From the NCBI RefSeq assembly GCF_013122565.1, contig NZ_CP053258.1: a stretch of 64,000 nucleotides of DNA, one strand, 5' to 3'. The notes beneath the pieces are model-generated. The model was given only the letters and a program-made list of their open reading frames with translations. It made no database searches and was not told the origin of the DNA. Position numbers and translations under genes: made by a program. Below, one piece after another: positions 11,914 through 14,598 of this stretch. The number at the start of each line of letters is the position of its first letter. The first letter of the stretch is position 1. This DNA comes from Escherichia coli. Its GTDB lineage: Bacteria > Pseudomonadota > Gammaproteobacteria > Enterobacterales > Enterobacteriaceae.

Positions 11914-14598
11914 ATGGATAAAAAAATATTGGCTCTTTTGATCCTGTCATGTCTTAGCCCCGCACGGGCGGCACTAACGAAAATCCCCTCTGGGTTTGAA
12001 GTCATTGCTCAAGGGCAACAGGAATACATAGAGGTTTTCTTTGCAGGGAAAAGCCTTGGCAAATATTACGCGATGGTGAACCTTGATACTGTAACGTTTA
12101 ATGAATCAGAGAGTTTATTTAATAAGCTCGAATTAGATACTGAAGACCGTAAAGTCGTAAGTACGATAAAAGAAAAACTATCACAACCGCTGGCACGCCA
12201 CGGCGAATTAGCCTGTGCCTACATGCATACTAATAATGGCTGCGGTTATCTGAATACGGATTCGGTAGATATTATTTACAATGATGAAGAAGGTTCTGTT
12301 ACCCTTTTCCTGAATCCACAATGGTTTTCTGCTGATTTTGGTAAATCGCTTTATCTGACTCCCGATAAAAATGTGGTTAACGCATTTATCCATCAGCAGG
12401 ATATCAACGTGTTGGCGCAGGACGATTACAAATCATTATCTATTCAGGGTAATGGTGCGCTGGGCGTAACAGAAAATAGTTATATTGGTGGTCACTGGAA
12501 TTTAAACGGTTATGACACCGATGATGGCAGCGATACTAATGTCGATGTCAGCGATCTCTATTACCGCTACGATTTCTTACGTCGCTATTATGCCCAGGCA
12601 GGGCGAATGGATAGCCGTACCTTATTTAATGCGCAGGGCGGCAGTTTTACTTTTAATTTTTTACCGCTCGGTGCAATTGACGGAATGCGCGTGGGTTCGA
12701 CATTGAGTTATTTGAACCAGGCACAAAGTCAGCAGGGAACGCCTGTGATGTTGCTGCTATCACGTAATGCTCGTGTCGATGCCTGGCGCAATGAACAACT
12801 GCTGGGTTCTTTCTACCTGAATAGCGGTACACAGTTTATTGATACCACGTCTTTCCCTTCTGGCAGCTACAACGTCGCGTTAAAAGTGTATGAAAATAAC
12901 CAACTTACGCGTACCGAGATGGTGCCGTTCACCAAAACAGGTGGTTTGACAGACGGGCAAATACAATGGTTTTTACAGGCAGGGCAGACGACCTCTGATT
13001 CATCGGATGACACCAGTGCTGTCTATCAGCTGGGTTTACGGCTGCCGTTGCATCCCCGTTATGAACTTTACGCAGGTCTGGCGAATGCAGATGACGTAAA
13101 TGCGTTTGAACTGGGGAATAACTGGAATACTGACTTTGGCGGAGCGGGAAATTTAAACGTCAGTGCGAGTGTGTTTCGTAATGATGATGGCGGGAAGGGC
13201 GATATGCAACAGGCTAACTGGAGCCTCGCAGGATGGCCGACGCTAGGGTTCTATCGTACTAATTCGGAAGGTGATTCCTGTTCAAGCAGCAGTAATGATA
13301 ATTACAACGCGTTGAGCTGTTACGAAAGTATTTCCGCGACGATATCGCAAAATCTGTTGGGCTGGAACATGTTGCTGGGTTATAGCCGCACACAAAACCA
13401 TACTGACGATAACTTCCTCTGGGATAAACAGGAAAGTTTTGAAAATAATTACTTACGCCAAACCACGGCACAAAATACCTCGGAAACCGTACAACTAAGC
13501 GCCTCGCGTGCTTTTGTCATGCGCGACTGGGTGCTGGGTACTTCCTTCGGCGTTTTCCATCGTAATGATAATGGCAATGATAACGATGATAACGGTATCT
13601 ATCTGACCTTATCGCTCTCTGATACGCCAGCCATGGACAGCAATAACAATAGTCATTCGACCAATGTGACCACCGATTATCGTCACAGCGATCAGGACGG
13701 TGACCAGACCTCGTGGCAAGTATCGCATACTTTTTATAACGACAGTTTTAGCCATAAAGAGTTGGGAGTGGAAGTGGGTGGCCTTAATACCGACACCATT
13801 AACAGTGCGGTTCATGGGCGACTGGATGGTCAATACGGCAATCTCTACGGTACGGTTTCTGACAGTTACGACCGTAATGAGCGTGATCATCTCACCGCAT
13901 TTACCGGAACGTACAGTTCAACGCTTGCAGTCAGCCGTTACGGCATCAATTTAGGTGCCAGCGGAATCGACGATTTACTGGGGGCAGTGCTGGTAGATGT
14001 CAAAGGTTTTGCCGAAGGTGATGAAGAGAGCCAGGAGATGCAACTGGAAGCCCGGGTGGCCGGAAGCCGCACAATGCAGCTTGGTGCCAATGACACTGCG
14101 CTTTTCCCTTATGGTAGTTTCCAGCCTGGTTTTGTGGATGTCAGTGACAGCAACCAGGGAAACCAGCAAGGGACAACCAACGTGATTAACGGTGCCGGGA
14201 ATCGAGAGTTAATGCTATTGCCCGGTAAATTACGTTATCGCGAAGTATCAGCCAGCTTTAATTACAACTATATCGGCCGCTTATTACTCCCGGCAGCGGT
14301 GCAAAAATTCCCGATTGTGGGGCTGAACAGCGCCATGCTGCTCCTGGCAGATGATGGCGGGTTTACCCTCGAAATTAATAGTCAGGAGAAAGAACTTTAT
14401 CTGCTTTCCGGCCATGAGTTTCTGAAATGCCCACTGAGTGTGCAAAAGAAACGCGCCAGCATTCGTTACAGCGGAGATGTCACATGTAGTGTGGTGACTT
14501 ATTCACAATTACCGGAGTCGATTCAGGTTCAGGCACAGTTGAAACAGCCTAAATTACGTGGAAACGTTCAGACGGCGCAAAGGGAGGTTGCACCATGA
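11914..14598 (+). CDS. Outer-membrane fimbrial usher (CooC/CfaC-like), ~894 aa
   Basis: Large ORF third in the operon; start preferred at MDKKILALLILSCLSPARA (signal peptide) rather than the track start at 11896; size fits an usher. Confidence 0.65.
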   Translation: MDKKILALLILSCLSPARAALTKIPSGFEVIAQGQQEYIEVFFAGKSLGKYYAMVNLDTVTFNESESLFNKLELDTEDRKVVSTIKEKLSQPLARHGELACAYMHTNNGCGYLNTDSVDIIYNDEEGSVTLFLNPQWFSADFGKSLYLTPDKNVVNAFIHQQDINVLAQDDYKSLSIQGNGALGVTENSYIGGHWNLNGYDTDDGSDTNVDVSDLYYRYDFLRRYYAQAGRMDSRTLFNAQGGSFTFNFLPLGAIDGMRVGSTLSYLNQAQSQQGTPVMLLLSRNARVDAWRNEQLLGSFYLNSGTQFIDTTSFPSGSYNVALKVYENNQLTRTEMVPFTKTGGLTDGQIQWFLQAGQTTSDSSDDTSAVYQLGLRLPLHPRYELYAGLANADDVNAFELGNNWNTDFGGAGNLNVSASVFRNDDGGKGDMQQANWSLAGWPTLGFYRTNSEGDSCSSSSNDNYNALSCYESISATISQNLLGWNMLLGYSRTQNHTDDNFLWDKQESFENNYLRQTTAQNTSETVQLSASRAFVMRDWVLGTSFGVFHRNDNGNDNDDNGIYLTLSLSDTPAMDSNNNSHSTNVTTDYRHSDQDGDQTSWQVSHTFYNDSFSHKELGVEVGGLNTDTINSAVHGRLDGQYGNLYGTVSDSYDRNERDHLTAFTGTYSSTLAVSRYGINLGASGIDDLLGAVLVDVKGFAEGDEESQEMQLEARVAGSRTMQLGANDTALFPYGSFQPGFVDVSDSNQGNQQGTTNVINGAGNRELMLLPGKLRYREVSASFNYNYIGRLLLPAAVQKFPIVGLNSAMLLLADDGGFTLEINSQEKELYLLSGHEFLKCPLSVQKKRASIRYSGDVTCSVVTYSQLPESIQVQAQLKQPKLRGNVQTAQREVAP

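Follow-up and report, generated by a model that had tools for sequence, protein, structure and literature searches.

Asn/Asp/Ser-rich runs in the usher of an Escherichia coli CS1-like fimbrial operon are very probably ordinary connecting elements of its β-barrel

Three runs rich in asparagine, aspartate and serine lie within the outer-membrane usher gene of a four-gene fimbrial operon in E. coli, and the locus raises the question of what kind of protein element these runs represent. The DNA analyzed is a stretch of 64,000 nucleotides from contig NZ_CP053258.1 (hereafter, the window). The original prediction had offered two answers, surface-exposed loop insertions or a compositional artefact, and in either case had taken the runs as the mark of a divergent usher. 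We found that they are very probably ordinary polar connecting elements of the 24-stranded β-barrel of an alpha-class usher encoded by a CS1-like operon. Asp, Asn, Gly, and Ser are preferred residues of β-turns and solvent-exposed loops, and the flagged runs are the most conspicuous cases of a general pattern of Asp/Asn-rich extracellular tips. The feature is ordinary, and the protein and the locus are already known.

All three runs are present in the plus-strand open reading frame (ORF) of the usher. Run 1 (SSSSNDNYN) occupies nucleotides 13282–13308 and residues 457–465; run 2 (FHRNDNGNDNDDNGIYL) occupies residues 548–564 (nucleotides as in Table 1); and run 3 (AMDSNNNSHSTNVTT) occupies nucleotides 13630–13674 and residues 573–587, with usher residues counted from the database start at nucleotide 11914 (894 residues). 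Their enrichment in Asn, Asp, and Ser is modestly beyond chance. The combined content of these residues (N+D+S) was 38% in residues 449–603 compared with 24.6% in the whole usher (binomial P=1.4e-4; the region was picked post hoc). Against shuffles of the usher, the densest N+D window of 9–12 residues (NDNGNDNDD) gave P=0.002–0.003, and the densest N+D+S window of 9–15 residues gave P=0.01–0.05. Non-overlapping 12-residue windows with an entropy of ≤2.2 bits numbered five, with 1.7 expected (P=0.026). Two of the five, DLYYRYDFLRRY and GQTTSDSSDDTS, lie outside the region flagged by the original prediction; the latter falls in the β7–β8 loop, which ranges from 8 to 22 residues across the family. 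The whole usher is rich in Ser, Gly, Asn, Asp, and Thr, as outer-membrane barrels typically are. Among 58 family sequences (alignment A3, consisting of 50%-cluster representatives plus CfaC, the CooC/CsdC-type usher of E24377A, and CblC), its N+D+S content ranks 15th within a range of 13–29%, and that of CfaC is higher, at 26.8%.

The ORF encodes an alpha/class 5 usher, of the alternate chaperone-usher pathway, as had been proposed. It matched the Usher_TcfC barrel domain (PF17271) with 216.2 bits (E=8.7e-64; cut-off 25) over residues 355–768 of the 900-residue mechanical ORF, and the TcfC E-set-like plug domain (PF16967) with 71.3 bits (E=5e-20; cut-off 29.4). The CooC_C C-terminal domain (PF15976) scored 27.1 bits, just under its cut-off of 29; this domain is named in the precomputed annotation of a near-identical protein (P0001), and β-sandwich C-terminal domains are seen in a model built with AlphaFold2 (AF2). 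The operon context is that of the alpha/class 5 systems, with chaperone, CS1-type major pilin, usher, and CfaE/CblD-type tip adhesin, all four present and in that order. Three cysteine pairs, C101/C110 in the N-terminal domain, C456/C469 in the β13–β14 loop, and C839/C858 in the C-terminal domain, are each kept in 51–57 of the 58 representatives. The mechanical ORF begins at 11896, probably upstream of the true start; the database protein starts at 11914 with a signal peptide (MDKKILALL...), and an identical E. coli protein is on record at NCBI (WP_171460325.1/QJU26900.1). Salmonella TcfC gave the best NCBIfam model match, at full length, and assignment as a TcfC orthologue (equivalog NF011838) was rejected at 551 bits, far under the cut-off of 1428.

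Distant matches of ∼800–840 residues (P0192–P0258) were also observed. They aligned only to the N-terminal domain, the first barrel strands, and the plug (query residues ∼20–365). These proteins are 13–17% identical to FimD and have a consensus like that of the alpha family, which suggests another usher subgroup, of shorter proteins, allied to the alpha class. A classical-usher profile (alignment A4) made from the ∼800-residue matches was discarded, as they were closer to the alpha family than to FimD.

The AF2 model of the usher was built on an alignment of 91 homologues (alignment A2; 28–98% identity), with strands assigned by DSSP, and had a mean predicted local distance difference test score (pLDDT) of 79.9 and a predicted template modelling score (pTM) of 0.68. 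It contains 24 long strands, 6 before and 18 after a plug (residues 275–341) located between β6 and β7. The best solved matches found by Foldseek were FimD (3rfz, E=5e-33) and PapC, and the isolated PapC and FimD pore domains gave template modelling (TM) scores of 0.64–0.67 at 13–16% identity. The window usher is thus like FimD and PapC in its 24-strand barrel, its β6–β7 plug, and its periplasmic N- and C-terminal domains, but differs in sequence to the extent that searches of the PDB with the sequence (phmmer) and with the A2 profile (hmmsearch) found no usher; FimD and PapC were linked by fold comparison only. A profile-profile comparison (hhalign) of A2 with the single FimD of MG1655 gave a probability of 1.3% and E=0.04, which is insufficient to map individual residues.

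The N- and C-terminal domains and the plug of ushers are periplasmic, so the connections that lead from an odd to the following even strand should be extracellular. This rule is borne out by PapC, a 24-strand usher whose plug sits in the β6–β7 connection: its β13–β14 gating α-helix is extracellular and its β12–β13 latch is periplasmic (PMC4356140). By strand parity in the AF2 model, together with the known usher architecture, an extracellular position is predicted for runs 1 and 2 and a periplasmic one for run 3. The claim that the runs are surface-exposed loops therefore stands as a prediction for runs 1 and 2, which fall in the β13–β14 loop and at the β17–β18 hairpin tip, and not for run 3, which covers a turn predicted to be periplasmic and the first part of β19. 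Nearly all of the predicted extracellular tips of this usher are rich in Asp and Asn (DD, DD, TSDSSDDTS, DD, DDGG, the Cys loop, GND, DQD, and NTD), and the family N+D+S fraction in most of them is 0.33–0.67. Differences from the common E. coli allele affect 24% of positions in predicted extracellular connections, 17% in periplasmic turns, and 14% in strands, and the greater change in the extracellular connections is consistent with exposure.

Run 1 lies in the loop bracketed by C456 and C469, which are present in 52 and 51 of the 58 representatives, respectively, and in ≥90% of the 91-homologue alignment. The sequence that they enclose is hypervariable and slightly variable in length (12–22 residues, median 17, for the whole β13–β14 loop, residues 453–469), and CfaC has DNCGRNYNAGWSGCYES at this position. 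Compared with the common E. coli allele, 7 of the 17 loop positions differ, against 16% overall (Fisher P=0.012). On the AF2 model, run 1 would fill the extracellular β13–β14 loop, with the Cys pair fixed and the enclosed sequence free to vary, as for an exposed epitope; it is probably an antigenically variable surface loop closed by a putative disulfide. Run 2 would form the protruding tip of the β17–β18 hairpin, anchored by a D-x-G that is conserved in the family: among the 91 homologues, G561 never varies and D559 is kept in ≥90%, and the run is ungapped in most aligned sequences. CfaC reads SEQRQLTDKG at this position. Fifteen of the 17 residues of run 2 are those of the common allele, with local synonymous sites saturated. 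Run 3 would correspond to the periplasmic β18–β19 turn at its family-standard length. The loop (residues 571–578) and the following strand (residues 579–592) were modelled as a block with a pLDDT of 82–91, and the turn has a family median of 8 residues, CfaC and the CooC-type usher being 6 residues shorter. This run shows two differences from the common allele (88% identity), and its turn may be in contact with the plug or with the periplasmic domains.

Several points weigh against reading the runs as ordinary barrel connections. Sidedness depends on a predicted model, and no alpha-class usher with a solved structure was found in the PDB sequence and profile searches or in the Foldseek list; a 2020 CFA/I paper relied on an I-TASSER model of CfaC (PMC7531860). 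Column entropy did not separate the predicted extracellular loops from the periplasmic turns, which were separated only by length variation. The pLDDT was <50 at residues 458–462 of the run 1 loop and moderate (68) at the tip of run 2, where the model turns at G554–D556 whereas the conserved D-x-G lies at 559–561, making the hairpin register uncertain. Finally, β19 is polar beyond what is usual for a membrane strand.

The usher is the outer-membrane pore through which the fimbria is assembled. Complexes of chaperone and subunit bind to its periplasmic domains, the plug moves out of the barrel, and the tip adhesin is exported first, followed by the pilin polymer; this course of events is established for FimD and PapC, and for CfaC it has been inferred (PMC4356140, PMC7531860). 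The three runs probably serve only to form turns and exposed loops. The resulting loop map, comprising the β13–β14 Cys loop, the β17–β18 D-x-G hairpin, and the 8-residue periplasmic β18–β19 turn, may aid surface-epitope and gating experiments on the CfaC-type ushers of enterotoxigenic E. coli (ETEC), because no alpha-class usher has an experimental structure.

A more specific role can be proposed for run 1, in which the Cys-bracketed β13–β14 loop would take the functional place, in alpha-class ushers, of the gating helix of PapC, acting as a disulfide-stapled extracellular lid that helps to keep the plug closed and whose exposed face changes rapidly in response to immune or phage pressure; a cation-dependent element could be contributed by the acidic tips, among them the DxDxNG of run 2. 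The proposal arises because strand count puts run 1 in the loop that holds the gating α-helix in PapC and a Cys-bracketed variable loop here, and the putative equivalence rests on that count. We regard this proposal as doubtful. The AF2 model also predicts, with low confidence (pLDDT of 44–46), a short helix at residues 509–517 (nucleotides about 13438–13464) in the 26-residue extracellular β15–β16 loop; this loop has 24–35 residues across the family. On the model, the β15–β16 helix, in place of the β13–β14 Cys loop, could be the counterpart of the extracellular helix of PapC.

Distinctly improbable is a functional divalent-cation or lipopolysaccharide-bridging site at the outer surface of the usher, formed by the acidic and amide hairpin tips and especially by D556-N-D-D-N-G561. 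The pattern D-x-[DN]-x-[DN]-G does occur once in the usher, exactly at run 2, which is under purifying selection within Escherichia, and the Asp/Asn richness of nearly all predicted extracellular tips holds for the window usher and the family alike; the full calcium motif, however, is present in only 11 of the 91 homologues and 4 of the 58 representatives, the conserved part being D-x-G, and enrichment in Asp, Asn, and Gly is expected at any β-turn. A DxDxDG-type calcium loop as a family feature was rejected, as the motif is not conserved.

To be weighed next are lineage-specific surface-loop insertions that would set this usher structurally apart from those of class 5, a reading that alignments A2 and A3 largely refute and that we hold to be very unlikely. 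The ETEC ushers CfaC (CFA/I) and CooC/CsdC (CS1/CS19), whose genes are plasmid-borne and which are 29–30% identical to the window usher, have the same Pfam architecture, a collinear full-length alignment, the Cys-Cys loop, and the D-x-G hairpin. Relative to them, the window usher has 6 more residues at run 3 and about 2 more at each of runs 1 and 2, the shorter elements of the ETEC proteins being the β18–β19 turn, the Cys loop, and the β17–β18 hairpin, respectively, and the model predicts an extracellular position for runs 1 and 2. However, the wider family mostly matches the window lengths of 17, 3, and 8 residues for the loops of runs 1, 2, and 3, which are the family medians, so that the ETEC ushers are short at run 3 rather than the window usher long. 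The Burkholderia cable pilus usher CblC, with 34% identity over 96% of the length, has loops of equal length. No extra residues were found at the runs relative to the homologues, most of which have no gaps opposite them, and no indels were found at runs 2 and 3 in the 91 homologues. The common E. coli allele also has nearly the same runs 2 and 3, and strand parity puts run 3 on the periplasmic side. In position, length, and anchor residues the runs are standard conserved features of class 5 ushers; their exact Asn/Asp sequence is not.

A compositional artefact, in which AT-rich, horizontally acquired DNA or replication slippage would have produced meaningless Asn/Asp-rich sequence, is highly improbable. 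The operon is AT-richer than its flanks (GC of 0.47 for the usher and 0.40 for the chaperone, compared with 0.54 for exuT), and a perfect two-copy tandem repeat of 9 bp (ATGATAACG) lies at 13577–13594 within run 2; yet GC-rich relatives such as CblC keep equal loop lengths, and the usher N+D+S content is ordinary for the family. For estimates of divergence, the window usher was set against the EA2 allele, the common one in E. coli. Over the whole usher the proportion of synonymous differences (pS) was 0.67, which is saturated (synonymous divergence, dS, about 1.65), and the proportion of nonsynonymous differences (pN) was 0.094, giving an omega of about 0.06; pS was 0.76 in the region of the original prediction. 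The amino acids of runs 2 and 3 are kept although local pS ranges from 0.66 to >1, with a pN of 0.05–0.10. Because 88% identity persists in protein while synonymous sites are saturated, the sequences of runs 2 and 3 are kept by purifying selection and are not products of compositional drift or slippage. Slippage or phase variation was likewise rejected as a candidate, the two-copy repeat in run 2 being the only tandem repeat and no length polymorphism being found among the E. coli alleles.

The chance that the short antisense ORFs noted over the run region are real overlapping genes is negligible: frames of 70, 42, and 93 residues do exist as mechanical ORFs (13259–13471, 13449–13577, and 13609–13890, respectively), but antisense ORFs of at least 40 residues in the usher number 9, against 9.05±2.2 after codon shuffling and a similar density in neighboring genes, none of the three has a Pfam match at E≤1, and sense-frame synonymous sites throughout the region are fully saturated, so that no second-frame constraint can be accommodated. 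These ORFs are not genes. Taken together, the analysis removes a false lead: the runs are neither insertions nor an artefact, and the region holds no antisense genes.

Nor do the runs mark the usher as divergent, since runs 2 and 3 are nearly the same in the common E. coli allele and the usher's N+D+S content falls inside the range of the family, lower than in CfaC. The usher is a divergent allele, with 84% amino acid identity to the common E. coli allele, for reasons unconnected with the runs. Coordinates of the runs and of the operon genes are given in Table 1.

Table 1. Positions in the window of the fimbrial operon genes and of the Asn/Asp/Ser-rich runs of the usher
Feature	Coordinates	Strand	Evidence
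Periplasmic fimbrial chaperone (TcfA/CfaA-like), operon gene 1	10584..11285	+	Pfam PapD_N E=4.7e-8
CS1-type major pilin	11285..11812	+	Pfam Fimbrial_CS1 E=4.3e-23
Alpha/class 5-type outer-membrane usher, 894 aa	11914..14598	+	Pfam, WP_171460325.1, AF2 model, Foldseek
CfaE/CblD-family tip adhesin, final operon gene	14595..15689	+	Pfam CblD E=5.6e-101
Run 1: loop between β13 and β14 bracketed (putative disulfide) by Cys456 and Cys469 (CSSSSNDNYNALSC), predicted extracellular, hypervariable	13279..13320	+	
Run 2: tip of long β17–β18 hairpin (FHRNDNGNDNDDNGIYL), with D559-x-G561, predicted extracellular	13555..13605	+	Strands 539–553, 557–570
Run 3: β18–β19 turn (TPAMDSNN) and first β19 residues (NSHSTNVTT), predicted periplasmic by strand parity	13624..13674	+	
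Further Ser/Asp-rich run GQTTSDSSDDTS, β7–β8 loop	12982..13017	+	Low-entropy window; same kind of feature as the flagged runs

The four plus-strand genes (window 10584–15689) are flanked by exuR (9513–10289) and exuT (15776–17194), both on the minus strand. The top NCBIfam match of the chaperone was TcfA, with 150 bits, under the equivalog cut-off. The true start of the pilin is probably an internal ATG (MKKVFVKS...), downstream of the mechanical start at 11285, because the orthologue called on a near-identical Logan contig (L006) has 166 residues and begins with MKKVFVKS. The locus is the known E. coli chromosomal CS1-like fimbrial operon, with the same exuR–exuT site, the same four genes, and the same gene order. 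The operon is found at this position in 1818 of 5426 complete E. coli genomes, about one-third, where its products are annotated as TcfC E-set, CS1 pilin, and CfaE-CblD adhesin. According to other papers, CS1-like was reportedly placed in the alpha clade (alpha-fimbriae) by Wurpel et al. 2013. In strain SE11 the CS1-like operon is ECSE_3375–3378; it is also carried by E24377A, HS, ATCC 8739, 536, and SMS-3-5 and is lacking from MG1655, and its amino acid identity among those strains is 71–100% (PMC2608844).

Compared with the known CS1-like operon, the window allele has an usher that is 84% identical in protein and about 76–81% in DNA, with a mosaic profile, within flanks of 99% identity. The flanks are 99.1% identical to E. 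coli, and the operon DNA as a whole is about 81% identical to the common allele; the locus thus displays deep allelic divergence within a 99%-conserved chromosomal backbone. Along window 10300–15100, the mosaic against E. coli EA2 (L001) consists of blocks of 93–100% identity at 10700–10999, 11400–11700, 14500–14599, and 15100–15700, the others being 58–80% identical. The nucleotide comparisons point to recombinational import of the operon allele, putatively from a distant Escherichia-like lineage. No operon allele with >90% identity over the full length (window 10300–15780) was found among the 5426 complete RefSeq E. coli genomes.

At least three allele groups are present at the locus, one of about 81% identity (1668 genomes), one of 60–80% (248 genomes), and the window's own. 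The exact usher protein and variants from its 90% cluster are carried by hundreds of public E. coli contigs (draft or other), and Escherichia sp. E4702 has one such variant. The intergenic segment between exuR and the chaperone gene (10290–10583) is the most divergent part of the locus, with 58–86% identity and indels, and is presumably the operon promoter and regulatory region. An AraC/Rns-type regulator gene, which is customary for ETEC class 5 operons, does not adjoin this operon. The operon is often damaged in other E. coli: the chaperone gene is frameshifted in EA2 (L001 2786–3501), and IS1 insertions or loss of most of the operon are seen in further strains (Evo1, VL40).

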